This document shows, in pieces, positions 6,980-58,030 of a DNA stretch of 64,000 nucleotides. Origin of the DNA: Escherichia coli. GTDB lineage: Bacteria > Pseudomonadota > Gammaproteobacteria > Enterobacterales > Enterobacteriaceae. Made by a program: the position numbers and the translations under genes. The stretch lies in assembly GCF_011045215.1 (NCBI RefSeq), contig NZ_CP049201.1; one strand, 5' to 3'. The notes below the pieces were generated by a model. It was not told the origin of the DNA. It searched no databases and saw nothing but the letters and a program-made list of their open reading frames with translations. Each line of letters opens with the position of its first letter. Position 1 is the stretch's first letter.

Positions 6980-8332
6980 TTAACGAAATACCACTTCTGC
7001 CCAGCGTGCCAGCCCGGCGGTGACGGAGCCAAAGTCATCGCCGCCTGCAATCGGAATGCCCGGCAACTGTTCTGCCAGCGCTTTTTTAATCAGCGGCGAA
7101 CGGGCGCTACCGCCGGTCAGGTAGATAACGTCCGGTTTTTCCTGGGCGTTATCCAGCGCCAGTTGCACCTGTTCCAGAATCCGCGCCAGTGGCTGGCTGA
7201 GGGCGCTTTCCAGCCCTTGCTGGCTAATCAGCGTAGCCAGTTCATCGCTGATAAACGGCAGTGAGGCGCGGGTTTCCGCAGTGCTTGAAAGGGCGATTTT
7301 GCTCTCTTCTGCGCTACGCACCAGGCGATAGCTTAAACGCTGACGCCAGACTTTCTGTAACAGGGCCACTTTTTCCGGTTCGCGGGCATCGCGTACCAGA
7401 TCGTTAAGCAGACGACCGTTGGCACTACTGTAGAAATCACTCTGTGCAGGAACGTCGTTGATGGCAACCGCATTCCACCACGGCAGAATCGGCAGGGCGA
7501 TGCCTTTTTCGGTTTCGCCACCCATGCCCAGTAACGGCATCAGGTTTTTAAACGCCAGCGCGATATCCAGATCGTTACCGCCAATACGGCAACCACTGTG
7601 ACCCAGCAGGCTGGCTTCACGATCGAGACGCGAACGCCACTGCGGCCCCATCAGCAGCAATGAACAGTCAGTCGTACCACCGCCGATATCCACCACCAGC
7701 ACCCGTTTTTCTTCCTGCAAGGTGGCTTCGTAATCCAGCCCAGCCGCGACCGGCTCGTACTGGAATACCACGTCCCTGAATCCGGCACGCTTCGCCGCGC
7801 GTTCCAGAATCCCTTGCGCCTGGGTGTTTGCTTCATCACCGCCCAGCCCCTGGAAGTTGATCGGACGACCAATCACCGCCTGAGTAATCGCTTCTGGCAG
7901 CTGTGCCTGCGCCTGCTGGCGAATGTGCAACATCATTGCGCAGACCAGATCCTCAAACAGCGCTACCTGCTGCGGTTTTAAGCCGCTGGCACCGAGGAAC
8001 GATTTTGGTGATTTCACAAACCACACTTCTTCTGGATCATCAATGTACTGTGCCAGTGAGGAAAGACCGAACTGCACGCTTTTCGCCGTAACATCGATAT
8101 CTTCTTCGCGGTTATAACGAATCGCCCGACGTAACAGCGCCTGCGTTTCATCGTCGTCTGCCGGAACATCATGATGGCGGTACAGCCATTCGCTTACCGC
8201 TTCACGCGTTGGCGCGCAAAGCATTGAAGGCAGCAGCGTGCTGTCGTTTTCCATTTTTAGCAAATGCGGTTTACCGTCACGCATGACCGCCACTGAACAG
8301 TTTGCTGTACCGTAATCAAAACCAATAAACAC
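6980..8332 (-). CDS. yegD: Hsp70/actin-fold ATPase YegD (DnaK-like, no obvious substrate-binding domain)
   Basis: Track ORF 6980..8395; start set at GTG 8332 (MFIGFDYGTANCSVAV), giving 450 aa as in K-12. Phosphate-binding motifs FDYGTAN and VVDIGGGTTD. Confidence 0.88.
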   Translation of the reverse strand: MFIGFDYGTANCSVAVMRDGKPHLLKMENDSTLLPSMLCAPTREAVSEWLYRHHDVPADDDETQALLRRAIRYNREEDIDVTAKSVQFGLSSLAQYIDDPEEVWFVKSPKSFLGASGLKPQQVALFEDLVCAMMLHIRQQAQAQLPEAITQAVIGRPINFQGLGGDEANTQAQGILERAAKRAGFRDVVFQYEPVAAGLDYEATLQEEKRVLVVDIGGGTTDCSLLLMGPQWRSRLDREASLLGHSGCRIGGNDLDIALAFKNLMPLLGMGGETEKGIALPILPWWNAVAINDVPAQSDFYSSANGRLLNDLVRDAREPEKVALLQKVWRQRLSYRLVRSAEESKIALSSTAETRASLPFISDELATLISQQGLESALSQPLARILEQVQLALDNAQEKPDVIYLTGGSARSPLIKKALAEQLPGIPIAGGDDFGSVTAGLARWAEVVFR

Positions 8333-9422: not shown

Positions 9423-12400
9423 TCAGTTAATCGCGAAATAACTACTATTTACCAGCAAATCCAGCGGTTGGGCATCGGCAATCACCTCACCATAAATCAG
9501 ATCGACGCCGATGCCAGAAAGCGTATCCATCACTAAGGGTAAAACGACTGGCCCGGCGATGGTTTTCATCCCGAGTCGCTGAGCGTGCCCCTGAATAATC
9601 GTAATCAGCATCTCATCCATCAAATTACCCTGCACGTTGGCGCATAACTCACCATCAAGTAGCAGGTAATCTGCCATATTCGCTTTCAGCGAGTTGAAGA
9701 TTTGCAGATCGCGGCCCACCTGGCTGAGCACTATCCGACATCCCGCCAGCCGCAGTTTTTGCACGCTTTCTGCGTGATCTAAAATCGCTTCAGCCGGAAT
9801 AATCAGATGTAATAACCGTGGTGGTAGAGGGCTATTTTCCAGCTGCTCAAGCAGATCATTCACCAGCGTGGCGCTACTCAAACCGGCAACGGAAAGGGGG
9901 AGGGCGATGCTTATGCCTTTACTGGCAACCGCTTTTGCGGCCTGCTGGAAAAATTCGTGGAATACCCGGCGGTCAAGAGCATGGCTAAGCGCCGGATCGC
10001 TGAAGCTACGACGAAATGTTTGTTCATCAATAATCTCGCCTTCGCAACTCCAGAGCTTAAGTGAAATCAGCCACAAATTACGCGCTTCCGGGATCCGTGG
10101 CGAAGCGACACCGTGGGCGAGCATCATCAACTGATTCTCTTTAATCATCCGCCACTGTTCATCAAGCGACATCGCCGCCCGTTCGCTATGTGCGACAGCT
10201 TGCTGCGGTTCGTAAACCGTCACCCGGCCCCGGCCACCATTTTTGGAGGCATAACAGGCGATATCAGCCTGCGACATCACTTCTGCCGCCTGATGATTGT
10301 TGTCATCGATCAAGGTAATCCCGGCGCTGGCACCTACCCGATGTACCCGGCCTTCCCATATAAAGTGATAGTCATTCACAGCACTGATAATACGTGTAGC
10401 GATAAAACGAGCGCTTTCAACATTGCAGTCTGGCAGCAGCAGACCAAATTCATCACCGCCGAGCCGCGCCAGCACGTCACTGGAGCGCAGCATACTCAGC
10501 ATCAACGACGCCAGTTCGCGCAGCAAAGCGTCGCCCGCCGCATGCCCGGCGCTGTCATTCACCGCTTTAAAGCGATCAAGATCGATAAACACCAGTGCAT
10601 GTCGCTGATGCGTACTGTTTACCGTTTGCAGCAGGATACGCAGTTGTTTCTCAAAACTGGCGCGGTTGGCGAGATGCGTCAGTGCATCATGGGAGGCGCT
10701 GTAGCTCAGCTGGCGCAGCATTTTGCGTGATTCGGTAACGTCCTGAATCACCAGAACCGAACCAATATTGCTGCCGTCCAGAGTACTTAACGGCGTAATA
10801 CTGTAATGCACGTCGTAACTGCCGCCGCTCCGACAGTGCAACACCACATCTTGTTCGATCGCGGAACGTGAGGTGTCGGCACTGTAAATGTTCTCCATTA
10901 ATGGTCCGTTGTCGCCAAAAGTAATATGCAACACCGTCAGGAGCGGAACACCTAACGCTTCTTCCTGCGTCCAGCCGCTCATCTTCTCCGCCACTGGATT
11001 CATAAAGGTAATTTTCATCGCCATATCAATACAGACCACGGCTTCACCGATGGAATCAAGCGTAATGTGCAGGCGCTCTTTTTCCTGAAACAATGCCTCG
11101 TTAAGCTGTTTAACCTCAGTCATATCCATATTAATGCCGAGCAGGCGTTCGACTTCGCCTTCTTTATTCAGTACCCGGTTGGCGAGGGCGCGGATATGGC
11201 GGATGCCATCTTTCACGGCAATGCGAAATTCCAGCTTAAAGGGCGAGCGTGATTGCAACGAATCACGAATCACTTTTTCGGCGTGTTGGCGATCTTCCGG
11301 CAATACACACTCGTACCACACCTGCCAGTTCGGTTTGATATGCGGAGGAATTTCATACAGCTCGAACATCCGCTTATCCCAGCTAAAAATATTCGGCTTC
11401 AACTCCCACTCCCAGATGCCAATCCCGCCCGCTTCGTTAGCCAGCGTGATGCGCTCCATCAGTTGCTGATTGACCTGTTCGGTGCGTTTTAGCTCGTTAA
11501 TGTCTTCAATCTGAGCGATAAAATAGAGCGGCGTGCCATCCGTGTGGCGCACCAGTGAGACGGCAAGCAACGCCCAGACAACATCGCCATTGCGGTTGTA
11601 GTAGCGTTTTTCCATTGAATAGGTGTTTATTTCACCGCTTATCAGCTTTTCAACCTGTTGGAGATCTTTATTGAGATCCTCCGGCCAGGTCAGTTGCTGA
11701 AAGGTGAGTCCGCGCAGCTCTTCCTGACTGTAACCGAGAAACTGACATAAGGCTTTATTGGCTTGCAGCCATTGTCCTTCCGTTCCCACAAGGGCCATGC
11801 CGATGGCGGAATACTCCATCGCGTTGCGAAAACGGGTTTCGCTTTCGGAAATGTGTTTGCGTTCCGCACGAAAGGCATACATCACCATCGTCATGATGTT
11901 GGCGGGCAGCAGGATCAGCAAAAACGGTAGCCACGGCATATGGCTCATCAGGTATGTACGCGGCGTAGCAAGCAGGGAGGGATCCGCGGCCATCATCAGC
12001 GACACCATCATCACCGTGGTAAGGAAGATCAAAAAGGCTTCCATTCGTGGCAGGCGCACGGCGCTCCACATCAACAGCACAATAATGAAAGTAAAAGGCC
12101 ACGGCAGGTACAACATAGAAAGCCAGCTTAACGTCAGCGTGATGGCTAACGTGAGCAGTGACTCAAAAAGTAACCGTGGGTTGCGATGGCGCAGCAGATA
12201 GTGTGGCTTAAATAACAATCCCAGCGGCACTAGTGCCAGAGCGCCGATGGATTCTGACAGTACCCATATCAAAAATGCCCTGAGAGGATCGTCTCCGGGC
12301 GTCAGCAGGACAACCAGAACACCCCCTAACAGAGGCGGAACAATGGCGCTGCCGAATGCCAGACGCAGCCAGTCAGCCAGATTTTGCAAGGGGTTATACC

Positions 12401-16520: not shown

Positions 16521-18104
16521 TCACACCTCGTACTCCATCTCGCCATCTTTACGCAGTGGAATAATCTGCACTTTCTGCACGCGATGGCTTTCCACCTGCA
16601 ACGTTTTAAGCAAATAATCCCCCACCTGAACTTCTTCGCCAGGTTTTGGAATACGCTGTAAATATTCCATCAACAGCCCGGCAATGGTGTGATATTCACG
16701 TTTTTCATCCAGCGGCAGCGGCACATATTGCACCAGATCCTCCAGCGGCATATGACCATTCGCCGTCCAGGAACCGTCCGCATTCTTCTGAATATCATGG
16801 CGGGCGTCGATCTCTTCCACTTCGTTCGGTAAGTTACCGGCAATGGTTTCAGTGACGTCACTTAATGTCACAATCCCTTCCACCGAGCCAAACTCATCCA
16901 CCACAAAAGCAAAGTGCGTGCGGGCATTACGGAACTGCTCCAGGGCAGGTAACAACGGCAAGGTTTCCGGGAACACCAGCGGCTGGCGAATCAACACCCG
17001 CAGGTTGAGCGGTTCGCCGCGCAGAGACTGTTGTAGCAGGTCGATAACGTGAACAACACCGAGCAAATCTTCTGCGTCATCACCGTCGGTAACCACCAGC
17101 CGCGTATGCTGATTTCGCTCCAGTAACTGGCGGATCTCGTCTTCCGGCGCGTTGAGATCGATATGCTCAATATCGTGGCGCGACGTCATAATGCTGCTGA
17201 CGGTACGCTGGTTAAGATTTAGTACCCGCTCAATCATCCGCCGTTCCTGCGGATTAAAGATCTGCTGGTTACCATGATCCACCAGCATGGACGCGGTTTC
17301 GGCGTCCAGTTCCGCATCTTCTTTTTGCCCGCTAAGCAGGCGCATTACCGCTTCGGTAGTCCGCTGGCGCAGCGTCTGGTTAGCGGAAAGAAAACGTCGC
17401 CGGTTAAAGATAGCCAACTGATTGAGCGCCTCGATCATCACCGAGAAACCAATGGCAGCGTACAGGTAGCCTTTCGGAATGACGAAGCCGAAACCTTCTG
17501 CCACCAGGCTAAAGCCAATCATCAACAGGAAGCTTAAGCAGAGAATAACGATCGTCGGGTGACTGTTAACAAATTGCGTTAACGGCTTGCTGGCCATCAA
17601 CATCAGGCTGATAGCGATAACCACGGCGGCCATCATGACCAGTAAATGGTCGACCATCCCGACGGCGGTAATCACTGAGTCGAGTGAGAAAATGGCGTCC
17701 AGTACCACAATTTGCGTCACCACGCCCCAGAACTTCGCACCTTTGCGTTGTGTGGGATTATTGCTGTCTTTCCCTTCCAGCCGTTCGTTCAGCTCCATCG
17801 TGGCTTTGAACAACAGGAAGAAACCACCAAACAGCATGATTAAGTCGCGGGCGCTAAAGGTAAACGAGCGGAAGCTGAACAGCGGTTGAGTCAGGGTGAC
17901 CAGCCAGGAGATTGACGCCAGCAGTAACAGGCGCATTAACATCGCCAGCAGCAGCCCGGTAACCCGTGCGCGGTCGCGCTGCTTCGGCGGTAGTTTTTCG
18001 GCGAGGATGGCAATAAAGACCAGGTTATCAATGCCGAGGACCAGTTCGATCACAATCAGCGTGATTAACCCGGCCCAGATAGACGGATCGGCAATCCATT
18101 CCAT
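16521..18104 (-). CDS. yegH: TerC-family membrane protein with CBS and CorC/HlyC domains, YegH
   Basis: Track ORF 16521..18170; start set at ATG 18104 ([16 protein letters not shown]), 527 aa as in K-12 YegH. Confidence 0.88.
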
Positions 18105-18545: not shown

Positions 18546-18584
18546 CAGTGTATTGGTAGCTAGAAAGCCAGGGGCGGTAGCGTG
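18546..18584 (+). promoter_or_regulatory. JUMPstart element with ops site (GGCGGTAGCGTG), RfaH-dependent antitermination signal in the cps leader
   Basis: cagtgtattggtagctagaaagccaggggcggtagcgtg; ops at 18573..18584; about 180 bp upstream of wza. Confidence 0.85.
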
Positions 18585-32924: not shown

Positions 32925-33112
<188 letters not shown>

Positions 33113-33202
33113 AATGAATGCGAAACCGCGGTGTAAATAACGACAAAAATAAAATTGGCCGCTTCGGTCAGGGCCAACTATTGCCTGAAAAAGGGTAACG
33201 AT

Positions 33203-37530: not shown

Positions 37531-37716
37531 GCCGGATGCGGCGTAAAACGCCTTATCCATCCTACGGTTCTGTGCTCGGGACCTGTAGGCCTGATAAGAC
37601 GCGTCAGCGTCGCATCAGGCACTGAATGCCGGATGCGGCGTGAACGCCTTATCCGGCCTACGGTTCTGTGCTCGGGTCTTGTAGGCCTGATAAGACGCGT
37701 CAGCGTCGCATCAGGC
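37531..37716. repeat. BIME cluster (multiple REP palindromes) between wzxC and wcaK
   Basis: Repeated gccggatgcggcgtgaacgccttatccggcctacggttctgtgctcggg and gtaggcctgataagacgcgtcagcgtcgcatcaggc units. Confidence 0.85.
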
Positions 37717-43075: not shown

Positions 43076-43969
43076 ATGACGAATTTAAAAGCAGTTATAC
43101 CGGTAGCAGGTCTTGGGATGCATATGTTGCCTGCCACTAAGGCGATTCCCAAAGAGATGCTACCGATCGTCGACAAGCCAATGATTCAGTACATTGTTGA
43201 CGAGATTGTGGCTGCAGGGATCAAAGAAATCCTCCTGGTAACTCACGCGTCCAAGAACGCAGTCGAAAACCACTTCGACACCTCTTATGAATTAGAATCT
43301 CTCCTTGAACAGCGCGTGAAGCGTCAACTGCTGGCGGAAGTACAATCTATCTGTCCGCCGGGCGTGACCATTATGAACGTGCGTCAGGGTGAACCTTTAG
43401 GTTTAGGCCATTCCATTTTGTGTGCACGACCCGCCATTGGTGACAACCCATTTGTCGTGGTGCTGCCAGACGTTGTGATCGACGACGCCAGTGCCGACCC
43501 GCTGCGCTACAACCTTGCTGCCATGATTGCGCGTTTCAATGAAACGGGCCGTAGCCAGGTGCTGGCAAAACGTATGCCGGGTGACCTTTCTGAATACTCC
43601 GTTATTCAGACCAAAGAGCCGCTGGATCGTGAAGGCAAAGTCAGCCGCATTGTTGAATTTATCGAAAAACCGGATCAGCCGCAGACGCTGGACTCAGACA
43701 TCATGGCCGTTGGTCGCTATGTGCTTTCTGCCGATATTTGGCCGGAACTTGAACGCACTCAACCTGGTGCATGGGGACGTATCCAACTGACTGATGCCAT
43801 TGCTGAACTGGCGAAGAAACAGTCCGTTGATGCCATGCTGATGACTGGTGACAGCTACGACTGCGGTAAAAAAATGGGCTATATGCAGGCGTTTGTGAAG
43901 TATGGACTGCGCAACCTGAAAGAAGGGGCGAAGTTCCGTAAAGGGATTGAGAAGCTGTTAAGCGAATAA
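43076..43969 (+). CDS. galF: UTP-glucose-1-phosphate uridylyltransferase regulatory paralogue GalF
   Basis: 297 aa, matches GalF. Confidence 0.95.
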
Positions 43970-44227
43970 TGAAAATCTGACCGGATGTAACGGTTGATAA
44001 GAAAATTATAACGGCAGTGAAGATTCGTGGTGAAAGTAATTTGTTGCGAATATTCCTGCCGTTGTTTTATATAAACAATCAGAATAACAACGAGTTAGCA
44101 ATAGGATTTTAGTCAAAGTTTTCCAGGATTTTCCTTGTTTCCAGAGCGGATTGGTAAGACAATTAGCGTTTGAATTTTTCGAGTTTAGCGCGAGTAGGTA
44201 ACGCTAGTCACATCGTAGACATGTAAG

Positions 44228-44266
44228 CAGTGCTCTGGTAGCTGTAAAGCCAGGGGCGGTAGCATT
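44228..44266 (+). promoter_or_regulatory. JUMPstart element with variant ops site (GGCGGTAGCATT) in the O-antigen cluster leader
   Basis: cagtgctctggtagctgtaaagccaggggcggtagcattg, about 350 bp upstream of the first O-antigen gene; last ops positions differ from canonical GGCGGTAGCGTG. Confidence 0.75.
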
Positions 44267-44618
44267 GTTCTTGATATTTTTAAGTATAAAAATGACACAT
44301 AAAAATAAAATAATTAGTTATCGGTATGTTTTTAATTGTGTTATTATTGAAAAATATCACCATTAATTATTTAATGCGATAAAGGCCAAATAAATCACTC
44401 ATTTATTTCTACATAGGATAGGGGACTATCAGATGGGAATTAAATAAAAATCCAAGTGCTAAATATTTCAATCTTAAATTCCATTGTAAAAAGTTTAAGG
44501 GATTTTATTCTAAAAAAGAATTGGATGAATTGAAAGTTATTTTGAGCTTAATTTATTAAACTTGAAGTTTTTTTACTGAGTTTTTCTGAAAAATAATTTA
44601 TTGTTAATGGAGCCATAT

Positions 44619-45638
44619 ATGTCAATTTTAGTTACCGGAGGTTGTGGTTATATAGGTGTCCACACAATTTATACGTTAATTTCTCAGGGCTACGATGTTA
44701 TTGTACTGGATAACCTGACTAACTCATCAATAGAGTCATTAGAGAGAGTCAAGTTAATGACAAATCATAACATACCCTTTTATAAAGGAGATGTGGGGAA
44801 TAAAAAAATATTGGTAGACATATTCAATGAGCATCAAATAAAAGCGGTTATGCATTTTGCAGGCTTGAAATCAGTAAGTGAATCTATAAAAAAACCGATT
44901 GAATATTATTCAAGTAACGTAATGCAAACGTTATCACTAATATCTACAATGATAGAGTATAACGTAAAAAGCTTTATCTTTAGTTCATCTGCTACTGTAT
45001 ATGGTAAACCAAAGTTATGCCCTATAAATGAAACTCATCCTATTGGCAAAACTACAAATCCTTATGGAACATCAAAATTAATGATGGAGTTAATGTTGTC
45101 TGATTTGTGTAATGCATATGATGATTTTAATGTGACAATTTTACGATATTTTAATCCAATTGGTGCTCATGAATCAGGTAATATTGGTGAACATCCAAAC
45201 GGTATACCAAATAACCTATTTCCTTATCTTACAAAAGTTGCTATTGGAGAGTATCCTTATTTAAAAGTGTATGGTTGTGATTACCCAACGTCTGATGGTT
45301 CTGGTGTTCGAGATTATATTCATGTAGTTGATCTTGCTGAAGCACATGTAAAAGCTTTATCAAAAAATTCAGAGTCGACTGGGCTAAAAATTTATAATTT
45401 AGGAACCGGAAAAGGATATTCTGTACTCGAAGTTATAGAAGCTTTTGAAAAGATAACTGGAATCAAAATACCATATAAAATTATGCCTCGAAGGGATGGT
45501 GATGTTGCGGAGTGTTGGTCTGATAGCACGAAGGCAAATGATAAATTAGAATGGAAAGCAAACAGAGAATTATATGACATGATTAGAGACGCTTGGAATT
45601 GGCAATCAAAAAATCCTCATGGTTATGATAATACATGA
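44619..45638 (+). CDS. UDP-hexose 4-epimerase, GalE family
   Basis: Start taken at ATG 44619 after ggag RBS (track begins at TTG 44601); ILVTGGCGYIG Rossmann motif and YGTSK catalytic motif; AT-rich codon usage. Confidence 0.8.
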   Translation: MSILVTGGCGYIGVHTIYTLISQGYDVIVLDNLTNSSIESLERVKLMTNHNIPFYKGDVGNKKILVDIFNEHQIKAVMHFAGLKSVSESIKKPIEYYSSNVMQTLSLISTMIEYNVKSFIFSSSATVYGKPKLCPINETHPIGKTTNPYGTSKLMMELMLSDLCNAYDDFNVTILRYFNPIGAHESGNIGEHPNGIPNNLFPYLTKVAIGEYPYLKVYGCDYPTSDGSGVRDYIHVVDLAEAHVKALSKNSESTGLKIYNLGTGKGYSVLEVIEAFEKITGIKIPYKIMPRRDGDVAECWSDSTKANDKLEWKANRELYDMIRDAWNWQSKNPHGYDNT

Positions 45639-46003
45639 TGTTATAGTATATTCAATGAATATAATTTATGCTTTGGAGTAAAAGTTGTCACAGCGTTTTC
45701 TTGCAGAACTAAGATGTTTTTAGCATAATTAGACACAGAATTAAAAATATTATCAGGCCGTATCAGTACATATCTTCAGTATGCACTATCATATATTAAT
45801 ATGAGAAAATATTTGTATTTAAAATATGATGTTCTAATAAGATTAAATTAACTGCCTAGGATATTAAAAGCTAATTTGGACTAGCTTTATTAGATAAGTA
45901 AATCTAACAAAATATTACTATGTCCGATATGTTATACCACTATTAATGACATCATGTAATATTATTTTAATAAACTATTTTTTGATCGCAGAGGTAATTA
46001 TAA

Positions 46004-46399
46004 ATGAGAAGAGTTATCACCTTTGGAACATTCGACGTGTTTCATATTGGACATGTTAATATATTAAAAAGGGCGAAGGAGTTTGGTGATTTGCTGATTG
46101 TGGGAGTTTCATCCGATTCATTAAATTTTTCTAAAAAACAGCGTTATCCAATCTATAGCCAGGAGGAGCGCATTGAGATTATATCCTCACTTAAGTTTGT
46201 AGATCATGTCTTTATAGAAGAATCTTTAGATCTTAAGTTAGAATATATTAGAAAGTATGAGGCAAATTTACTTGTAATGGGAGATGATTGGAAGGGCAGA
46301 TTTGACTGGGTTAAAGATGAGTGCGAAGTTATTTATTTGCCCAGAACACCATCGATATCAACTACCGAGATTATAGAAATTGTCCGGAGAATAAAATGA
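46004..46399 (+). CDS. Glycerol-3-phosphate cytidylyltransferase (TagD/TarD-like; makes CDP-glycerol)
   Basis: 131 aa; ITFGTFDVFHIGHVNIL (HxGH nucleotidyltransferase motif) and ...MGDDWKGRFDW...EVIYLPRTPSISTTEI, closely resembling Bacillus TagD. Confidence 0.85.
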   Translation: MRRVITFGTFDVFHIGHVNILKRAKEFGDLLIVGVSSDSLNFSKKQRYPIYSQEERIEIISSLKFVDHVFIEESLDLKLEYIRKYEANLLVMGDDWKGRFDWVKDECEVIYLPRTPSISTTEIIEIVRRIK

Positions 46400-46471
46400 T
46401 AACTCATTTGTTGATAGTGATTTATATTGTATAATTAATATTATGTAAAATGATATATATGGCAAATACAA

Positions 46472-47773
46472 ATGACGTCATGTAATAACTTTAAAAAGTA
46501 TAAAACATTATCTTTATTATCCGTGTGTTTATCCTCTATTCGTGTCTTTTTGGGGCCAATAACATTACTTGTACTAGCCAAAAACCTTTCCACTGAGGAA
46601 CTAGGATTTTATTATGCTTTTTTTTCGTTAACAGCAATGGCACAGTTGCTGGAAGTTGGGATGTCTAGCGTATTGAAACAGTATTATAGCCATTCTTATG
46701 CTATTCATGATATCAGTGAAAAAAATATAAAAATATCGAACTATTTTAACTTTTCAATCTATTGGTATTTAATATTATCAATACTTTTTTTTATATTGGG
46801 AGGGGTGGTGTCATATGTTATGTTTAATGATTATAACGGAATAGTTAACTGGAAATTACCATGGTTTTTTTTGCTTTTTGTTTCATGTACTAATTTATTA
46901 GTATTGCCCTTAAATGCAATGCTTGATGGAACACAAAGGCAACAATTATTGATGAAAGCTAATATTGTTAGTCAGTTAATGATAGCGATATCATTATGGC
47001 TGACAATTTATTTAGGCTTGGGGCTATATTCTCTTGGTCTATCACAATTGGTAGGAATATTATTTTTTTTACTGTCAGTTTTTATATTTAATAAATGTAG
47101 ATTCCAGTTCATAGAAATACATAAAAAAAACTTTTCATTTAAAACAGTATTTAATGAGTTGTGGCCGTTATTGAAAAAAACTAGTATCGTATGGTTTCTT
47201 GGTTATTTCTACTGGAACGGTTTTAATATAATATCATTTAAATATCTTGGTGCAGAGATCGCAGGCTTCGTTGGTATGTCGATGTCAATTATGCGAGCGG
47301 GACAGAATATAGCAATATCTATTTTGAATTCTCAGATGACATTGTATGCAAGCAATATTGCGATGGGAAAGATTGATGAAGCAAGAAGAGTATTTAAGAA
47401 ATATTTTATCATTTCATTTTTGTTATTAATTTCTGGTTACTCAATATTTTATATTTTCTATTATGTTAAGCCTGATTTTTTCTTGTTTAAGAAGGTCCTG
47501 CCCTTAGAACAAATGATTTATGTGTCAATATTTTTTGCCTTTACATTTATAATATCAGGAACTGAAACTTTTATTCGTTGTTTTAAAGTGGAGAAGTTCG
47601 TTATCACTCAGACAATCAATTCAATTTTAACTCCATTCTTATTTGTTTTGGGGCTTAACTTGCATTATCAATATTTTTGTTTACCAATAATATCTGTACT
47701 GATAGTGTCAATCTTAACGTTATATATAAGTCGACGTTTTTACACGGGGTATTCGAATGCAAAAAATACTTAA
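46472..47773 (+). CDS. wzx: O-antigen flippase Wzx (polysaccharide biosynthesis protein family)
   Basis: 433 aa, many predicted TM helices; N-terminal Wzx-like segment FLGPITLLVLAKNLSTEELGFYY. Confidence 0.7.
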   Translation: MTSCNNFKKYKTLSLLSVCLSSIRVFLGPITLLVLAKNLSTEELGFYYAFFSLTAMAQLLEVGMSSVLKQYYSHSYAIHDISEKNIKISNYFNFSIYWYLILSILFFILGGVVSYVMFNDYNGIVNWKLPWFFLLFVSCTNLLVLPLNAMLDGTQRQQLLMKANIVSQLMIAISLWLTIYLGLGLYSLGLSQLVGILFFLLSVFIFNKCRFQFIEIHKKNFSFKTVFNELWPLLKKTSIVWFLGYFYWNGFNIISFKYLGAEIAGFVGMSMSIMRAGQNIAISILNSQMTLYASNIAMGKIDEARRVFKKYFIISFLLLISGYSIFYIFYYVKPDFFLFKKVLPLEQMIYVSIFFAFTFIISGTETFIRCFKVEKFVITQTINSILTPFLFVLGLNLHYQYFCLPIISVLIVSILTLYISRRFYTGYSNAKNT

Positions 47774-48929
47774 GTATATAATGAAATTAATGATGTGGAG
47801 TATTTATCCTATCGGTTTTTTAATTAAAAGGGATAAAAGCATTTGGCTTTTCGGTAGTTATAGCGGTTTTACTGATAATAGTCGATATTTATTTGAATCT
47901 ACCACTAAAAAGAATGATGTAAGATGCATTTGGATATCTGATGATATAAAGCTGATAAAAAAAATTAGATGTAAAGGTTATGAGGCATATTACAAATATA
48001 GTGTTAAAGGTATATATTTTTGTTATATTGCAAAGGTGTATATATATTCAAATTATGTATCAACGATAAACTTTTATACATCTGCAGGCGCGGTATTGGT
48101 AAATTTATGGCATGGGACGCCACTTAAAAAAATCGAATATGATATATCTAAATCTCCTTTATTTAATTATTTTAAAGGAGCCTCATTTATAATTAAAATA
48201 TTGATGCCTGAGAAACATAAAAAGTGTAATTTCATTCTTGCTCCGAGTCAATTTGTTTATGATTATTCATTTAAAAGTGCATTTAGGGTGTATGATATGC
48301 AATATGCCATTATTGCTGATCCACCTAGGATATCTAATCTCTTATCAAGAGCCTATCACAAAGTGAATAATGATAAGAATTCAATTAAAAAAACAAAGAA
48401 AACATTTTTATATGCACCAACATGGAGAGATGATCGCTCGGATTTTATAAGTATTTCAGGTTTAAATTTCAACGAAATTAATAATTTTCTATTAAAAAAT
48501 AACGCGTATTTACAAATCAGGTTGCATCCTAATACAACTTTAAATATTGATATGAGTGAAATGGAAAATATTCACATTGTTGATAATTATGAACCAGCTG
48601 AAGATAGTATGCTAAATTCTGATTTTCTCATAACTGATTACTCTTCAATATATTTTGACTACCTCTATCTTAATAGACCTATAATCTTCTTCCCATTTGA
48701 TCTTGAAAAATATACCGCATCGCGTGATTTTTATTTGAGTTATAACGAAGCAACTCCAGGGGTTAAAGTATATAATCAAGGTGAATTAATCCAGGAGATG
48801 GATAACCTATTGAAGGGCATTGACAATTGGATGAACTATCGAAAGGAGCTTGCTGAAAAATTCTGTTCGCTCGAAAGACGTAACGATGATTATATCATAA
48901 AAAAAATTAAAAAAGGTGTATCTGAATGA
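47757..48929 (+). CDS. CDP-glycerol glycerophosphotransferase (TagF/TagB-like)
   Basis: 390 aa; YAPTWRDD motif typical of the TagF family; directly downstream of the tagD-like gene. Confidence 0.7.
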   Translation: MQKILKYIMKLMMWSIYPIGFLIKRDKSIWLFGSYSGFTDNSRYLFESTTKKNDVRCIWISDDIKLIKKIRCKGYEAYYKYSVKGIYFCYIAKVYIYSNYVSTINFYTSAGAVLVNLWHGTPLKKIEYDISKSPLFNYFKGASFIIKILMPEKHKKCNFILAPSQFVYDYSFKSAFRVYDMQYAIIADPPRISNLLSRAYHKVNNDKNSIKKTKKTFLYAPTWRDDRSDFISISGLNFNEINNFLLKNNAYLQIRLHPNTTLNIDMSEMENIHIVDNYEPAEDSMLNSDFLITDYSSIYFDYLYLNRPIIFFPFDLEKYTASRDFYLSYNEATPGVKVYNQGELIQEMDNLLKGIDNWMNYRKELAEKFCSLERRNDDYIIKKIKKGVSE

Positions 48930-49732
48930 ATCTTGGTAAAATTATAAATTATATAGAGTCTAAGGTTATTAGTATAAATTTTGATTTCAATCATTTAGCT
49001 GGCTATTTAAGTCGTGATGAGCGAGATAAAATAACCTTAAAACATCTAAGCAGTATTATTGATAGAAGAAAAAAACATCCATCTGTTTCTGCTATATACA
49101 GAGTGAAAAATGGAGCTCAATTTATTGAACTATCTATTCTTTCAATAGCTGCATTTTGTCGTGAAATAATTATTGTAGACAATAATTCAACAGATGATAC
49201 TTTACTAATAGTAGAACGTCTTAAAAGCGAACTTCAGGAAATATGTGAAATTAAAATCTATCAGTATACTAGTCAGGTCGCTTTGGCGGGTAAGAATTAT
49301 AATGATGAAATCAGAAAATATCCTGAGCGGTCATTGGCAAAATATTATAACTATGCTTTTTCATTGGCAACATCGGAATTCTTAATGAAGTGTGATGCTC
49401 ATTATATATTCACACCTGCGGGTATAGATAGTATACAACGAAAATTAATTTCAAATCATAAGTCAGTTGATGTTATATGTTATCGTGGCACCGAAGTATT
49501 TGGAGCCATGTTAGATTGTGAACCCTATCTAATACGGAAAAATAGTTTTAAATATTACGACACTCAATATTTTGAACGTTTGACATTAAACAAGAAGAGA
49601 AGTTTTATTCAAAAAATTAAAGGGAGAATTTCATCACCTTGCTTTATACATGTTAAACGTTTGAGTTATGTTAAGTCAGTTCATCTATGTGAAATAAACC
49701 CTGTGGAGTATATGTATAAAAATGATAATTAA
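48926..49732 (+). CDS. Putative glycosyltransferase (GT-A fold, family 2-like)
   Basis: 268 aa; SAIYRVKNGAQFIELSILSIAAF...IIVDNNSTDDT resembles the GT2 N-terminal signature; start overlaps previous stop. Confidence 0.55.
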   Translation: MNLGKIINYIESKVISINFDFNHLAGYLSRDERDKITLKHLSSIIDRRKKHPSVSAIYRVKNGAQFIELSILSIAAFCREIIIVDNNSTDDTLLIVERLKSELQEICEIKIYQYTSQVALAGKNYNDEIRKYPERSLAKYYNYAFSLATSEFLMKCDAHYIFTPAGIDSIQRKLISNHKSVDVICYRGTEVFGAMLDCEPYLIRKNSFKYYDTQYFERLTLNKKRSFIQKIKGRISSPCFIHVKRLSYVKSVHLCEINPVEYMYKNDN

Positions 49733-50951
49733 ATTACATAATATTTGCGTAACTGGGAAGAATGATAATCATGACGGGTCTTTTCGCCTACAAATATACT
49801 ATTTCCTATGTATTTTAATATCTATTCTATTTTTCAGTGCATACCCTTTGGTATCGTTACCTCTTATAGCTCTTTCAAGTCCATTTGTTAATAACTATGC
49901 AAGATGGACTATGTCACTATTAATGATTTTTTATTTTATTTTATTATACTCATCTATTACGCCTTTTTCAGACATAGCAGAGTATATGCTTATCTATAGA
50001 GGAGTAACCGATGTTGATATATTTAGTTTTGGTAGGTTTGGTGGTGGAATCGAGATCTTCATATTAGCTCTCATGCGCTTGGTGTATTTTATATCCGATG
50101 GCAATGAATATCTTTTTTTATTTTTTTGCTTTACTATTATTCAAATATTTCTTTTTGTATTTTGTTATCGTGTTAATCGTCGTTTATCATGTTTATATTT
50201 TTTAGTATTTAATCTTTCATATGCTTATTATTCTTTTAATGCATATTTTTTACGAAGCATGTTATCCGCGGTTTTTTTAATTAATGCCTTTTTGTTTATT
50301 TCTAAAAAAAAGTATGTGTATTATTTTTTTGCAATTATATCGCATTTGTCATCCGTCCTATATATAGGAGTATGGGAATATTTAAGGGCAAGAAATAAAA
50401 AATTAAAAATATGGGTTGCTAGTATGGCAACTGTAACTATTATATGTTGTTTTATTTTTTTGCGAGATAGGATTGAATTTTATTTATTTAAAAGCTCTGG
50501 AAATTCGATGGGGTATGTACAAGTTGTAACCATTGCTTTTAATTATATTTTGTGTTTGTTGTTATTATTCTTTTCAAATGCAAGAAAAGAATTGTCAACT
50601 CAAAGAATAATATTGTTTTTGACTTTTTTCTTTATCTTGGCCTTGGTAACTTATAAAATACCACAAAATTTTGGGATAAGAATCTCTATTTTGCTTTACG
50701 CACTATCACCGTTTTTCTTGTATCCACTTCTTACCTCCTGCAATGTAACAATATTAAATAAGATCAAATCGTTGTCTCTTTATATGATTGTTAACTGTTG
50801 CTTTCTCTTTGTTGTGTTATATAAGGGCGATGATATTTCAAATCACATGCGTTCAAATCCATTAGATACTAGTTTTATTGATTTATTAATAAAGGACATA
50901 GATTATTTTGTTAAAGGATATTATCCAGTAATATATTCTAGAGACGAATAA
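49722..50951 (+). CDS. wzy: O-antigen polymerase Wzy (putative)
   Basis: 409 aa, very hydrophobic and F/Y/I/L-rich polytopic membrane protein with no strong family signature, as is typical for Wzy. Confidence 0.6.
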   Translation: MIIKLHNICVTGKNDNHDGSFRLQIYYFLCILISILFFSAYPLVSLPLIALSSPFVNNYARWTMSLLMIFYFILLYSSITPFSDIAEYMLIYRGVTDVDIFSFGRFGGGIEIFILALMRLVYFISDGNEYLFLFFCFTIIQIFLFVFCYRVNRRLSCLYFLVFNLSYAYYSFNAYFLRSMLSAVFLINAFLFISKKKYVYYFFAIISHLSSVLYIGVWEYLRARNKKLKIWVASMATVTIICCFIFLRDRIEFYLFKSSGNSMGYVQVVTIAFNYILCLLLLFFSNARKELSTQRIILFLTFFFILALVTYKIPQNFGIRISILLYALSPFFLYPLLTSCNVTILNKIKSLSLYMIVNCCFLFVVLYKGDDISNHMRSNPLDTSFIDLLIKDIDYFVKGYYPVIYSRDE

Positions 50952-51238
50952 GGGACATTGTTTAGATGTGCAAGGTGGAAATGTATCAAAGAAAATTGTA
51001 GTTACTACAGTAACAGTTACTTTGTAAAGTATATTTCGGTAAAACCTGCAATAACCAAGGGCGCTAAACTCCCTAACAACTCCGCTAATGGAATTAGAAT
51101 TAGAGAGTGACGAGTTTAAATATGAGAGTTTAGGGTAATAGAACAAATTTTTAAGTTTATAGAGTAAGAACAGATTAAGTTAAGTTTGCTTATTTTATAA
51201 TAAGCTCTTTCTTAAACCATATATAGTATTATCTACAA

Positions 51239-51961
51239 TTGAGTGATATCAAATTGAATATTGAGATCGGTTTATCAGCGCTGAATTCAGGAATTTATAA
51301 AATTAAATTTCGTAATGATTATAATTATCTTATTATTCATCAGATTACTGATGAATGTGATTACTCTGATTATGTGGCATCTTTCCCTGAAAATGTTAGA
51401 TACATATCTTCATATGAGTCTGGGTTGTCCAAAAGTCGAAATATGGCCATTGAAAATGCAAAATACGATTATCTTTGGTTAATGGATGATGATATGGAAA
51501 TAGATGATGCGGCTTGGGATTATCTGACGAAATTTATTAGTGATTATAAAAATAGTCCTTTGCTGGTTGTTTCTCATTCATTGGCAAAAAAGTATAATAA
51601 TGAAAAAGAGAGGATTAAAAGATTGAATCCTATAACTGCTGCGGGAATTTGTTCTGTAGATATGATATTAAAAATTTCAGCACTGGACGGTATTAGATTT
51701 AACTCAGATTTTGGGTTAGGAGCTAAATATCCTTCCGGTGAGGAATATATTTTTGCATGTGATTTGATGAGAGCTGGAAAAAAAATATATAAATCTAATA
51801 AAATTTGCTCGAATCATCCTGACACGACTTCTAGTGATAAAACATATCCAAATAAAGACGCTTTTAGTACGAAGAAGAAAATGTTTAAAGTCGCAAATGG
51901 GAAATACTTAGGGAGCATTTTGTATATTGCTTTTGTTGTCAAAAAATTACTATATAAATAA
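51239..51961 (+). CDS. Putative glycosyltransferase family 2 (possible TTG start)
   Basis: 240 aa; DxD-like motif in KYDYLWLMDDDMEIDD; ORF opens right after an in-frame stop at 51224 and first in-frame start is TTG 51239, so start is uncertain. Confidence 0.55.
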   Translation: MSDIKLNIEIGLSALNSGIYKIKFRNDYNYLIIHQITDECDYSDYVASFPENVRYISSYESGLSKSRNMAIENAKYDYLWLMDDDMEIDDAAWDYLTKFISDYKNSPLLVVSHSLAKKYNNEKERIKRLNPITAAGICSVDMILKISALDGIRFNSDFGLGAKYPSGEEYIFACDLMRAGKKIYKSNKICSNHPDTTSSDKTYPNKDAFSTKKKMFKVANGKYLGSILYIAFVVKKLLYK

Positions 51962-52005
51962 TAATTTACATAATTTTATTTTTATATAATCTATTTATTG
52001 TCTAG

Positions 52006-53052
52006 ATGCCTATGAAAAAAGTATATATTTTTATTGATGATATATCCCGTTCCGGTGGCACAGAACGAGTTGCGACATTTCTCTCTAATCAAATGTTTTT
52101 ATCCGGATTTTCAGTCACACTAATATCATTAGCATTAGAAGGAGGGAATACATACTATCCGCTGCAACCCGGAGTCAAGTTAGAGGTTTTAAGTGAATCA
52201 ACATTATACGAATTGTTTCTTTTTTTAAGAAAAAATTCATGTGATGTGTTGATTTCTGTTTCCATGGGTAGTTTATCGTTTAAGCTTGCATGTTTACATT
52301 TTCTATTACGATTAAAATCTCGTCTTATTTTAAGTGAGCATGTGGCTTTTGAATCCTCATCAAAGTTCATTCGTTCTCTAAAATGGTTAAGCTATCAATT
52401 CGCTGATGATCTTGTATTATTGACAAAGCATGATTATAAATTGCTTAAGTCAAATGTTAGGGCTCATACTCACGTTATCAATAATGCTAGTGGTTTCGAA
52501 CAATTATCTGAATCTGTTCTTATTCAAAAGCAAAAGATAGTATTAGCAGTGGGACGTTTAACTTATCAGAAGGGGTTTGATAGGTTAATTCGTATTTGGG
52601 CTTCCATATCGGACAATCACGGTTGGGTTTTACGGATCGTAGGGGATGGAGAATTGCGTTCAGAACTACAAAAAATGATTGTTGACCTGAATGTTACACA
52701 TAATGTCCAACTTATACCAGCAACAAAATGTATAGAACAAGAATATACTAATGCAGCTATATTAGCTATGACTTCTCGCTATGAAGGACTACCATTGGTT
52801 CTTATAGAGGCTAAATCTTTTGGATTAGCAGCAGTCGCTTTTGATTGTAAAACAGGTCCTGCTGAAATTATTCATCACAAAAAAGATGGGTTCTTGATTA
52901 CTGAAGATAATGAACCTGAATTTTCATATCGTCTTCAGTCTTTAATGATCGATGATGTTTATCGAAACAAAATACAAAGTATGGCCTTAAGAAATGCTAA
53001 TGATTATTCTGTTGAAAAAATAAGTCGGCAGTGGTTGGAGTTAATATCATGA
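52006..53052 (+). CDS. Glycosyltransferase family 4 (GT-B fold)
   Basis: 348 aa; C-terminal motif RYEGLPLVLIEAKSFGLAAVAFDCKTGPAEII typical of GT4 donor-binding region. Confidence 0.75.
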   Translation: MPMKKVYIFIDDISRSGGTERVATFLSNQMFLSGFSVTLISLALEGGNTYYPLQPGVKLEVLSESTLYELFLFLRKNSCDVLISVSMGSLSFKLACLHFLLRLKSRLILSEHVAFESSSKFIRSLKWLSYQFADDLVLLTKHDYKLLKSNVRAHTHVINNASGFEQLSESVLIQKQKIVLAVGRLTYQKGFDRLIRIWASISDNHGWVLRIVGDGELRSELQKMIVDLNVTHNVQLIPATKCIEQEYTNAAILAMTSRYEGLPLVLIEAKSFGLAAVAFDCKTGPAEIIHHKKDGFLITEDNEPEFSYRLQSLMIDDVYRNKIQSMALRNANDYSVEKISRQWLELIS

Positions 53053-53837
53053 GTAGTTATGAAACAGTATCTATAATCATGCCTACGTTTAATGCTGCAT
53101 CTTATATTTCGTATAGCATCATTTCTGTAATTGAACAATCATATAATGATTGGCATTTATATATAATAGATGATGGTTCAACTGACAATACCGCACATGA
53201 AATATCTAATTTTACCGATCTGCGAATAACATATGTAATGCTTCCTATCAATAGTGGAGTTGCAAATGCTAGAAATATAGGTATTAAAATGGCAAAAGGG
53301 AAATTTATTGCGTTTCTTGATAGTGATGACATTTGGGAAAAAGAAAAATTATCCTTGCAAATCCCTTTACTCGAAAAAGGATATGATGTAGTTTGTTCAA
53401 ATTATGCCATTTTTAAAAATGAACCAAAAAAAATAATCGGTTCTCGAACTGCACCACAACAGATCACCTATTCGCGTTTGTTACGCGGTAATTGTATCGG
53501 CAATTTAACGGGGATTTATAACCGAGAACGACTAGGTAAATGCTTACAGGAAGAATGTGGACATGAAGACTATCTAATGTGGTTACAGTTGGTAAAGCTT
53601 TCTGGTAGCGCTTATTGCATACAGAAAAATTTAGCCCGGTATCGAGTTACGGAACATTCAGTATCATCAAATAAATTAAAAGCAGCATTTTGGCAATGGA
53701 ATATATATCGTAAAAAACTCAAGCTTAATATTTTGAGCAGTATATATTACTGGTGTAATTATTCTTTTTACGCATTTATGCACATGTTAAAAATGAAGTT
53801 TCATGTGAATAAAAGTAATCTAATATATAAGAGATAA
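53049..53837 (+). CDS. Glycosyltransferase family 2
   Basis: Start set at ATG 53049 (MSSYETVSIIMPTFN; track begins at 53031); classic GT2 N-terminus ...IIDDGSTDNT; ATGA overlap with upstream gene. Confidence 0.8.
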   Translation: MSSYETVSIIMPTFNAASYISYSIISVIEQSYNDWHLYIIDDGSTDNTAHEISNFTDLRITYVMLPINSGVANARNIGIKMAKGKFIAFLDSDDIWEKEKLSLQIPLLEKGYDVVCSNYAIFKNEPKKIIGSRTAPQQITYSRLLRGNCIGNLTGIYNRERLGKCLQEECGHEDYLMWLQLVKLSGSAYCIQKNLARYRVTEHSVSSNKLKAAFWQWNIYRKKLKLNILSSIYYWCNYSFYAFMHMLKMKFHVNKSNLIYKR

Positions 53838-54085: not shown

Positions 54086-55492
54086 ATGTCAAAGCAACAG
54101 ATTGGCGTCGTCGGTATGGCAGTGATGGGGCGCAACCTTGCGCTCAACATCGAAAGCCGTGGTTATACCGTCTCTATTTTCAACCGTTCCCGTGAGAAGA
54201 CGGAAGAAGTGATTGCCGAAAATCCAGGCAAGAAATTGGTTCCTTACTTTACGGTAAAAGAGTTTGTTGAATCTCTGGAAACGCCTCGTCGCATCCTGTT
54301 AATGGTGAAAGCAGGTGCAGGCACGGATGCTGCTATTGATTCTCTCAAGCCATACCTCGATAAAGGTGACATCATCATTGATGGTGGTAACACCTTCTTC
54401 CAGGACACCATTCGTCGTAACCGTGAGCTGTCTGCAGAAGGTTTTAACTTTATCGGTACTGGTGTTTCCGGTGGTGAAGAAGGTGCACTGAAAGGACCTT
54501 CCATCATGCCTGGTGGCCAGAAAGAAGCCTATGAACTGGTTGCACCGATCCTGACCAAAATCGCCGCAGTGGCTGAAGATGGGGAGCCATGTGTTACCTA
54601 TATTGGTGCCGATGGTGCTGGTCACTATGTGAAGATGGTTCACAACGGTATTGAATACGGAGATATGCAACTGATTGCTGAAGCCTATTCTCTGCTAAAA
54701 GGTGGCCTGAACCTCACCAACGAAGAACTGGCGCAGACCTTTACCGAGTGGAATAACGGTGAACTGAGCAGCTACCTGATCGACATCACCAAAGATATCT
54801 TCACCAAAAAAGATGAAGACGGTAACTACCTGGTTGATGTGATTCTGGATGAAGCTGCAAACAAAGGTACGGGTAAATGGACCAGCCAGAGTGCGCTGGA
54901 TCTCGGCGAACCGCTGTCGCTGATTACCGAGTCTGTGTTTGCACGTTATATCTCTTCTCTGAAAGATCAGCGCGTTGCCGCATCTAAAGTTCTCTCTGGC
55001 CCGCAAGCGCAGCCAGCAGGCGACAAAGGTGAGTTCATCGAAAAAGTTCGCCGTGCGTTGTATCTGGGCAAAATCGTTTCTTACGCCCAGGGCTTCTCTC
55101 AGCTGCGTGCGGCGTCTGAAGAGTACAACTGGGATCTGAACTACGGCGAAATCGCGAAGATTTTCCGTGCTGGCTGCATCATCCGTGCGCAGTTCCTGCA
55201 GAAAATCACCGATGCTTATACCGAAAATCCGCAGATCGCTAACTTGCTGTTGGCTCCATACTTCAAGCAAATTGCCGATGACTATCAGCAGGCGCTGCGT
55301 GATGTTGTTGCTTATGCAGTACAGAACGGTATCCCGGTTCCCACCTTCGCCGCTGCGGTTGCCTATTATGACAGCTACCGTGCCGCTGTTCTGCCTGCGA
55401 ACCTGATCCAGGCACAGCGTGACTATTTCGGTGCACATACTTATAAGCGCATTGATAAAGAAGGTGTGTTCCATACTGAATGGCTGGATTAA
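54086..55492 (+). CDS. gnd: 6-phosphogluconate dehydrogenase (decarboxylating)
   Basis: 468 aa; [15 protein letters not shown] Rossmann motif; matches Gnd. Confidence 0.96.
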
Positions 55493-55517
55493 TCTTATTT
55501 AACTAACAATAAATTGA

Positions 55518-55549
55518 GGCCTGGCGTATATTGCGCCGGGCTTTTTTTT
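55518..55549 (+). terminator. Rho-independent terminator downstream of gnd
   Basis: GC-rich hairpin ggcctggcg...cgccgggc followed by an 8-T run. Confidence 0.8.
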
Positions 55550-55730
55550 GCCAATTATCTTATAGACTAAATTTCACTGCTTAATATTAACTTAATAAAT
55601 ATCAGCTATTCTTATAAAGAAAATCTGAATTGTTTTTCGTTGCGTTGACCATCTGACAACGTAGCGTTAAAACTTTTAGCTCTTATCAGGATGCTAAAAA
55701 CATCATGATTCACAGTTAAGTTAATTCTGA

Positions 55731-56906
<1,176 letters not shown>

Positions 56907-56916
56907 CATCATGTTA

Positions 56917-56945
56917 TCAGGGCGATTTTCGCCCTGATTCTCTTA
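56917..56945 (+). terminator. Terminator-like hairpin downstream of ugd
   Basis: Perfect inverted repeat tcagggcga-ttt-tcgccctga followed by T-rich sequence. Confidence 0.6.
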
Positions 56946-57049
56946 TGTTCCCTTTGTAATAATTCATTTTTTTTATCATTTATCCTATAGCATTCATGGC
57001 GATTATCGCTAAACTATGGCGACTTAAAATTATTTCGTCCGTTAGGGTA

Positions 57050-58030
57050 ATGATGAGAGTAGAAAATAATAATGTTTCTGGGCAAAACCATGACCCGGAA
57101 CAGATTGATTTGATTGATTTACTGGTGCAGTTGTGGCGTGGCAAGATGACAATTATCATCTCTGTCATTGTGGCTATTGCCCTGGCTATAGGGTATCTGG
57201 CCGTTGCCAAAGAAAAGTGGACTTCCACAGCTATCGTTACTCAACCTGATGTGGGGCAAATCGCTGGTTATAACAATGCCATAAATGTGATTTATGGTTC
57301 GGCAGCGCCGAAAGTGTCTGAGATCCAGTCGATGTTAATTGGTCGTTTCAGCACGACATTTTCTGCATTAGCAGAAACGCTGGATAATCAGGAAGAACCT
57401 GAAAAACTGACCATTGAGCCTACCGTTAAAAATCAGTCATTACCTTTAGCGGTTTCTTATGTGGGTGAAACACCTGAAGGTGCGCAGAAACAGCTGGCGA
57501 AGTATATCCAGCAAGTTGACGACCAGGTAAATGAAGAACTGGAACAAGACCTGAAAGACAACATCGCGCTGCAAATGAAAAACTTGCAGGATTCTCTGAA
57601 GACCCAGGAAGTGGTTGCGCAGGAGCAGAAAGATCTGCGTATCCGTCAGATTCAGGAAGCGTTGCAGTATGCGAATCAGGCGCAGGTGACAAAGCCGCAG
57701 ATTCAGCAGACACAGGACGTAACCCAAGATACTATGTTCCTTTTGGGGAGCGAAGCGCTGGAGTCGATGATTAAGCACGAGGCGACTCGTCCGTTGGTGT
57801 TCTCATCAAACTACTATCAGACTCGTCAAAACCTGCTGGATATCGACAATCTTGACGTTGATAAACTTGATATTCATGCTTACCGCTATGTAATGAAACC
57901 GACGTTACCTATTCGTCGCGATAGCCCGAAAAAGGCAATTACCTTGATTCTGGCGGTGCTGCTGGGCGGCATGGTTGGCGCGGGGATTGTGCTGGGGCGT
58001 AACGCTCTGCGTAATTACAACGCGAAGTAA
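57050..58030 (+). CDS. wzzB: O-antigen chain-length determinant Wzz (polysaccharide co-polymerase)
   Basis: Track ORF 56996..58030; start set at ATG 57050 (MMRVENNNVSGQNHDPEQIDLIDL) after taggg RBS; two TM segments flanking a coiled-coil periplasmic region. Confidence 0.9.
   Translation: MMRVENNNVSGQNHDPEQIDLIDLLVQLWRGKMTIIISVIVAIALAIGYLAVAKEKWTSTAIVTQPDVGQIAGYNNAINVIYGSAAPKVSEIQSMLIGRFSTTFSALAETLDNQEEPEKLTIEPTVKNQSLPLAVSYVGETPEGAQKQLAKYIQQVDDQVNEELEQDLKDNIALQMKNLQDSLKTQEVVAQEQKDLRIRQIQEALQYANQAQVTKPQIQQTQDVTQDTMFLLGSEALESMIKHEATRPLVFSSNYYQTRQNLLDIDNLDVDKLDIHAYRYVMKPTLPIRRDSPKKAITLILAVLLGGMVGAGIVLGRNALRNYNAK

Follow-up and report, generated by a model that had tools for sequence, protein, structure and literature searches.

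Does an ops element that lacks the G at its last position still serve as a loading site for RfaH? The question is raised by the JUMPstart that heads the O-antigen cluster in a 64-kb stretch of Escherichia coli DNA (the window), which carries the O81 O-antigen genes. For canonical ops it is established that the non-template strand forms a hairpin with a flipped T6, that RNA polymerase pauses at U11 and that RfaH binds there; RfaH-dependent read-through of AT-rich operons occupied by H-NS is likewise known from the literature. The O81 copy reads GGCGGTAGCATT, in which A (44264) and T (44266) take the place of the two G residues that canonical ops has at positions 10 and 12. In the initial annotation, this variant was proposed to weaken RfaH recruitment and so lower the expression of distal O-antigen genes. 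The comparisons below instead favor a natural allele that is likely to be a normal RfaH loading site, functional and at most modestly altered in pause strength or loading.

The identity of the element is secure. The O81 JUMPstart (CAGTGCTCTGGTAGCTGTAAAGCCAGGGGCGGTAGCATT) matches Rfam family RF01707 with 55.2 bits and E = 6e-10 (cmscan, 64-kb window), and the alignment spans model positions 1-38 of 38. The JUMPstart of the colanic-acid (cps) cluster (CAGTGTATTGGTAGCTAGAAAGCCAGGGGCGGTAGCGTG), which carries the canonical ops GGCGGTAGCGTG, gives a full-length match with E = 2e-10 in the same window, and with a gathering score of 35 bits both matches are far beyond chance. All five pairs of the O81 JUMPstart hairpin are standard or G-U, no non-canonical pair is flagged in the cmscan structure line, and the final U of the variant receives a positive score where the consensus has G. 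Aligned over 39 positions, the two copies match at 32; of the mismatches, five lie in the 5′ half (positions 6, 7, 8, 17 and 18) and two in ops, where cps and O81 differ by G>A at position 37 (ops 10) and G>T at position 39 (ops 12). Thus, the element and its departure from the cps copy at the 3′ ops bases were both correctly recognized at the outset. Within ops, the core GGCGGTAG is exact at 44255-44262, including the RfaH-contact and hairpin bases 3-8; C9 is intact and the pause base T11 (44265) is kept. What is absent is the G12 of the published consensus, quoted as GGCGGTAGnnTG with an "n" at position 10.

The core 8-mer occurs four times in the window, where 1.3 occurrences are expected. 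Two of these lie outside the JUMPstarts, at 17986-17997 (+; full site GGCGGTAGTTTT) and at 7107-7114 (-), and are most likely chance matches; the former is antisense within a 549-aa minus-strand ORF, about 590 bp ahead of the cps JUMPstart.

The O81 element also stands where it was first placed, at the head of the O-antigen operon, between galF and galE-wzx-wzy and on the sense strand (Table 1). Its ops lies on the non-template strand of an untranslated 5′ leader, 352 nt ahead of the first start codon. ORFs over the JUMPstart are chance ones of 33-37 aa, and the leader downstream holds no ORF of note, only ones of 20-37 aa. Even with two mismatches allowed, the + strand of the cluster shows no second, compensating ops. 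A search of 43900-44700 with a promoter consensus brought up nothing convincing, its hits being no more numerous than those in shuffled sequence. The CFT073 wzx transcription unit has a predicted start 67 nt upstream of ops, and by analogy the O81 start site would lie near 44188.

Table 1. Features of the O81 O-antigen locus and the cps comparison copy, in window coordinates
Feature	Position	Strand	Basis
Colanic-acid (cps) JUMPstart, canonical ops GGCGGTAGCGTG, upstream of wza	18546..18584	+	RF01707, 57.3 bits
galF, last conserved gene ahead of the O-antigen cluster	43076..43969	+	ORF; PGAP annotation of the identical CFSAN061772 region
Conserved spacer between galF and JUMPstart, presumed site of the O-antigen promoter	43970..44227	+	Cross-serogroup identity
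39-bp JUMPstart	44228..44266	+	Rfam RF01707
JUMPstart hairpin, CTGGT (44235-44239) with GCCAG (44249-44253), 9-nt loop	44235..44253	+	cmscan
ops, GGCGGTAGCATT	44255..44266	+	Sequence; sole + strand ops-like site in the cluster
O81-specific untranslated leader, 352 nt, 22.7% G+C	44267..44618	+	Chance-level identity to other serogroups
O81 O-antigen genes, 30% G+C overall	44619..53837	+	ORFs and PGAP names of the identical locus
galE	44619-45638	+	ORF, PGAP
Small cytidylyltransferase-like gene	46004-46399	+	PGAP 'FAD synthase family'
wzx, 'O81 family'	46472-47773	+	ORF, PGAP
CDP-glycerol glycerophosphotransferase	47757-48929	+	ORF, PGAP
Glycosyltransferase	48926-49732	+	ORF, PGAP
wzy, 'O81 family'	49722-50951	+	ORF, PGAP
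Three further glycosyltransferases	51254-53837	+	ORFs, PGAP
gnd, ugd and wzzB, downstream	54086..58030	+	ORFs, PGAP

The O81 leader is unusually long and AT-rich, at 352 nt compared with 40-71 nt in the wzx, kps and rfa leaders of CFT073. An attenuator was considered here, as a terminator-like hairpin (44251-44273) overlaps ops and is followed by ATATTTTTAA, with a T run to 44283. This candidate was rejected: the local fold is no better than that of shuffled sequences (z = -1.0) and the stem consists mostly of G-U pairs. Among the genes of the cluster, the cytidylyltransferase-like gene together with the CDP-glycerol glycerophosphotransferase suggests a glycerol-phosphate substituent in the O81 repeat unit.

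The variant is not peculiar to one assembly. Strains CFSAN061772 and LR-03 match positions 43900-45700 at 100% identity, and the entire stretch recurs in 10 complete genomes, which come from different countries and from sources as varied as cheese, humans, horses, chicken and pig. All 10 complete E. coli genomes with an O81 cluster carry GGCGGTAGCATT, with no reversion, and it is therefore a fixed feature of the O81 cassette and no sequencing error. An assembly or sequencing artefact, or a mutation private to a single strain, has nothing in its favor but the rarity of the variant among E. coli genomes; it is refuted by an identical 30-mer in these 10 independent complete genomes, and its probability is practically nil.

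The position of the variant bases relative to the cassette boundary is informative. From 285 nt upstream of ops through ops position 11, identity to the O100, O172, O93 and other clusters is 86-97%, while the 150 nt past position 11 resemble other serogroups no better than shuffled sequence does. In every case, divergence between serogroups starts directly after ops. Judged from these alignments, position 12 either closes the shared block or opens the serogroup-specific cassette, and since cross-serogroup identity stops at position 11, position 12 would travel with the serogroup-specific DNA. Two O93 strains that have a non-G12 ops and a leader in common fit such cassette-linked inheritance. 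Leader matches to O93, O80 and O110 that run 3-16 nt past ops were set aside as chance extensions, not additional homology. An origin of GCATT by a 4-base deletion from GGCGGTAGC(A/G)TGCATT, as found in rmlB-type leaders (e.g. O100), was likewise rejected, as the O81 sequence past ATT (GTTCTTG...) is dissimilar to those leaders.

What would the loss of G12 be expected to do? According to Zuber et al. 2018 (PMC5995543), T11-G12 is common to all validated E. coli targets, and every single substitution but G2C reduces the RfaH effect in a reporter. The effect is 35.9-fold for the wild type, 18.6-fold for G10C and 20.0-fold for G12C, compared with 4.8-fold for T11G, 4.7-fold for G5A and 4.9-fold for G8C. 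G12C abolishes the U11 pause in vitro and its reporter output with RfaH is 0.25 of wild type, although RfaH recruitment persists (PMC5995543). A published structure of the paused complex shows G12 in specific contact with the polymerase CRE pocket. The engineered G10C and G12C changes fall at the same two positions as the O81 changes, but they introduce C instead of A or T, are single instead of double and were made in a synthetic reporter context. From such data it could be argued that A10 and T12 weaken the ops pause and RfaH loading, leaving the distal O81 genes and O-antigen expression substantially lower. The operon has a single ops, and its 352-nt AT-rich leader is exposed to Rho.

Natural sites bound by RfaH argue against a substantial defect. 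RfaH ChIP-seq in strain CFT073 (Hustmyer et al. 2022; PMC9765446, Data set S2) places the genome's strongest peak at kpsM, whose ops is GGCGGTAGCATA, with a fold enrichment of 70.9, a height that partly reflects high transcription and is no measure of loading efficiency per polymerase. Enrichment is 30.6 at wzx and 19.0 at rfaQ, both with canonical ops, and 5.7 at hlyC with GCATG; c1882, with GCGTA, is bound only on removal of H-NS and StpA (PMC9765446). The kpsM site, at the head of region 3 of the group 2 capsule locus, resembles the O81 site in having A10, in lacking G12 and in lying inside a JUMPstart, and the sole difference between the two ops is A versus T at position 12. It belongs to another locus, that of the capsule ABC transporter genes, and its ops is 40 nt from the first gene. 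As this one-base neighbor of the O81 ops gives the strongest RfaH peak, an ops with A10 and no G12 loads RfaH efficiently in vivo. Progress of RNA polymerase through kps without RfaH is 0.1-0.34 of wild type in CFT073, and a kpsM-type JUMPstart with GGCGGTAGCATA is found in 246 complete E. coli genomes.

The CFT073 wzx leader, with GGCGGTAGCGTG, is the closest counterpart in position. It occupies the same place after galF, shares the 27-nt 5′ part of the JUMPstart and the ops core, C9 and T11 with O81, and is likewise the single-ops leader of a polysaccharide operon low in G+C. It differs in having G at positions 10 and 12, where O81 has A and T, and in a distance from ops to first gene of 71 nt versus 352 nt. 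RfaH binding in CFT073 is restricted to leader sites, and the RfaH signal extends to wzzB.

Ops sites without G12 are also far from exceptional in natural genomes. When 5426 complete E. coli genomes were searched for exact 28-mers that join the 16-nt JUMPstart segment tagctgtaaagccagg to a 12-nt ops, the ops ended in GCGTG in 2153 genomes, GCGTA in 122, GCGTT in 34, GCGTC in none, GCATT in 11 and GCAT followed by a base other than T in 47; two cases of this last class were read, and both are GCATG (O100, NCTC9040). Ops without G12 thus account for 167 of the 2367 genomes that share the upstream 16-mer (7%), and they precede intact O172 and O93 clusters as well as one unnamed cluster. The exact O81 12-mer is rare, and its 11 genomes out of 5426 comprise the 10 with O81 and one with a decayed kps locus. 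The latter, from a chicken isolate (NZ_CM163382.1, 3019-3030), has GGCGGTAGCATT in a kps-type JUMPstart after gspM/yghD and ahead of a frameshifted, truncated ABC-transporter permease gene; the capsule locus appears to be decayed.

One strain in this collection, KSC9 (NZ_CP018323.1), has two galF-JUMPstart units, at 12017 and 18084 and about 6 kb apart, that are separated by IS1, IS26, other IS fragments and a plasmid stbA gene. The first unit has an ops ending in GCGTT and the second in GCGTG, and the duplicated units with differing ops indicate that the head of its O-antigen locus was rearranged.

Beyond complete genomes, an unselected metagenome sample of 120 JUMPstarts gave 98 unique contexts. 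Positions 9 and 11 are invariant among them (C and T, respectively, in 98 of 98), position 10 is G in 89, A in 7 and T in 2, and position 12 is G in 72, C in 16, T in 5 and A in 5, so that G12 is missing from 26 of 98 contexts (27%). The C12 contexts precede wzi-wza-wzb capsule genes; the Wzi-like protein was identified by Pfam, while an NCBIfam search gave no match for it. From gene order and the Wzi sequence, these contigs are probably Klebsiella. Such loci of the Klebsiella K-locus type, with ops GGCGGTAGCGTC, parallel O81 in that a JUMPstart without G12 heads a long polysaccharide operon, but they combine C12 with G10 and belong to another genus. In K. pneumoniae, deletion of rfaH cuts wzi and manC transcript levels by about 60% and leaves less capsule.

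A scan of species-representative genomes for GCCAGGGGCGGTAGNNTH returned mostly chance matches in unrelated phyla, with about a dozen usable true JUMPstarts among the matches listed, and provides examples, not a frequency. The exact O81 12-mer lies ahead of an intact ABC-transporter-type cluster in Pantoea dispersa DSM 30073 and, on one metagenome contig, ahead of a glycosyltransferase-rmlB-rmlA cluster. Further JUMPstarts without G12 among the matches listed come from Citrobacter (both cps and O-antigen copies), Siccibacter, Pluralibacter and Brenneria.

How common the variant is in functional clusters, and among the JUMPstarts of other O-antigen clusters, was the comparison on which the initial annotation staked its proposal. 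Forms with A10 or without G12 are common, O172 and O93 being O-antigen examples that lack G12, but the exact 12-mer is rare and GCATT occurs in only 11 of 5426 E. coli genomes. In substance, the variant class does occur widely ahead of functional clusters. With non-G12 ops common and the kpsM peak the strongest, weaker RfaH recruitment and lower distal expression are not well supported. Sites without G12 stand ahead of intact clusters that are serologically recognized or RfaH-dependent, and the O81 allele is fixed in 10 of 10 genomes. The structure of the O81 O-polysaccharide has been published, for which the yield was sufficient, and the serogroup is therefore expressed. We regard a substantial loss of O81 expression through A10 and T12 as unlikely.

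If loading is close to normal, one might ask whether the O81 site compensates for the missing G12. The sequence continues as ...GCATTG, and T12 with G13 recreates a pyrimidine-G pause dinucleotide one base downstream, which could give a U12 pause and normal RfaH loading. Footprinting is consistent with some latitude in position, with RfaH able to load at C9, G10 and U11 and remaining on ops DNA at positions 12/13 (PMC5995543). A tally of positions 12 and 13 was made over JUMPstart contexts in 84 families (loci L001-L251). C or T at position 12 is followed by G13 in 10 of 16 context families, and T12 alone in 5 of 11, against a background G frequency of 16%. These families are non-independent, however, and the five C12 families are related capsule leaders; compared with G13 after G12 (29%), the enrichment for T12 is not significant (p = 0.18). 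Moreover, A12 sites (kpsM, c1882) work without a pyrimidine-G dinucleotide, and after a one-base shift the upstream G no longer lines up with the pause consensus. A compensating U12 pause is, accordingly, a quite improbable account of the O81 site. In the same tally, G at position 12 is followed by A at position 13 in only 2 of 59 context families.

The reading we prefer, a normal loading site of slightly unusual sequence, can be laid out by analogy with the canonical element. Transcription would start in the conserved galF-JUMPstart spacer. As RNA polymerase melts ops, the non-template strand would form the C3:G8 hairpin that presents G5 and T6, the polymerase would pause around U11 and RfaH would bind. 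The RfaH-modified complex would then read through the 352-nt, 23% G+C leader and the 9.6-kb, 30% G+C cluster, where Rho and H-NS would be expected to halt a polymerase lacking RfaH. T12 would take the place of the G seated in the CRE pocket of the paused complex, and A10 would fall at a consensus-free position, leaving the RfaH-contact bases 3-8 and the pause base T11 intact. Given how well ops sites that lack G12 recruit RfaH in vivo, the O81 allele is most likely functional. The rarity of the exact 12-mer, the loss of output and of the U11 pause in G12C, and the CRE contact of G12 count against this functional reading. A modest quantitative effect of A10 and T12 is possible, given the roughly 2-fold reporter cost of G12C and a long AT-rich leader that may sensitize the operon; such a leader could make it more sensitive than others to a loss of loading.

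For the O81 locus itself, the consequence is small, as the operon very probably uses RfaH just as other O-antigen operons do, and its ops adds one more natural allele to an element known from textbooks and represents no new kind. The wider point concerns the consensus. G12 is not truly defining for ops, as the RfaH-bound CFT073 sites kpsM (GCATA) and c1882 (GCGTA) lack it, and RfaH loading in vivo can evidently do without the contact that G12 makes in the CRE pocket. A consensus in which G12 is fixed captures natural ops sites incompletely: about a quarter of those linked to a JUMPstart, including the E. coli kpsM and wzi-type capsule ops, will be missed or misjudged by a search that requires GGCGGTAGnnTG or treats G12 as essential. 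We found no discussion of the exact O81 12-mer in the literature. It is tempting, if rather doubtful, to see position 12 (perhaps with 13) as a natural tuning knob with which cassettes set their own pause, RfaH loading and polysaccharide expression. Cassettes may do so by using U11 with G12, or by moving the pause to U12 or C12 with G13, as in O81 and the wzi-type loci. Were this true, the T11-G12 requirement for a functional ops would be wrong for roughly a quarter of natural sites.

Several other structured RNAs are recognizable elsewhere in the window. The algC RNA motif (RF02929, 76.6 bits) lies at 33149-33198 (+) in the colanic-acid cluster, ahead of cpsG, and two REP-derived naRNA4 elements (RF02564) are found at 32992-33062 (-) and 37588-37658 (-). 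SIB RNAs are the antitoxin RNAs of Ibs/Sib type I toxin-antitoxin loci, and three tandem copies (RF00113, 138-142 bits) occupy the minus strand at 1928-2070, 2256-2398 and 2584-2732.
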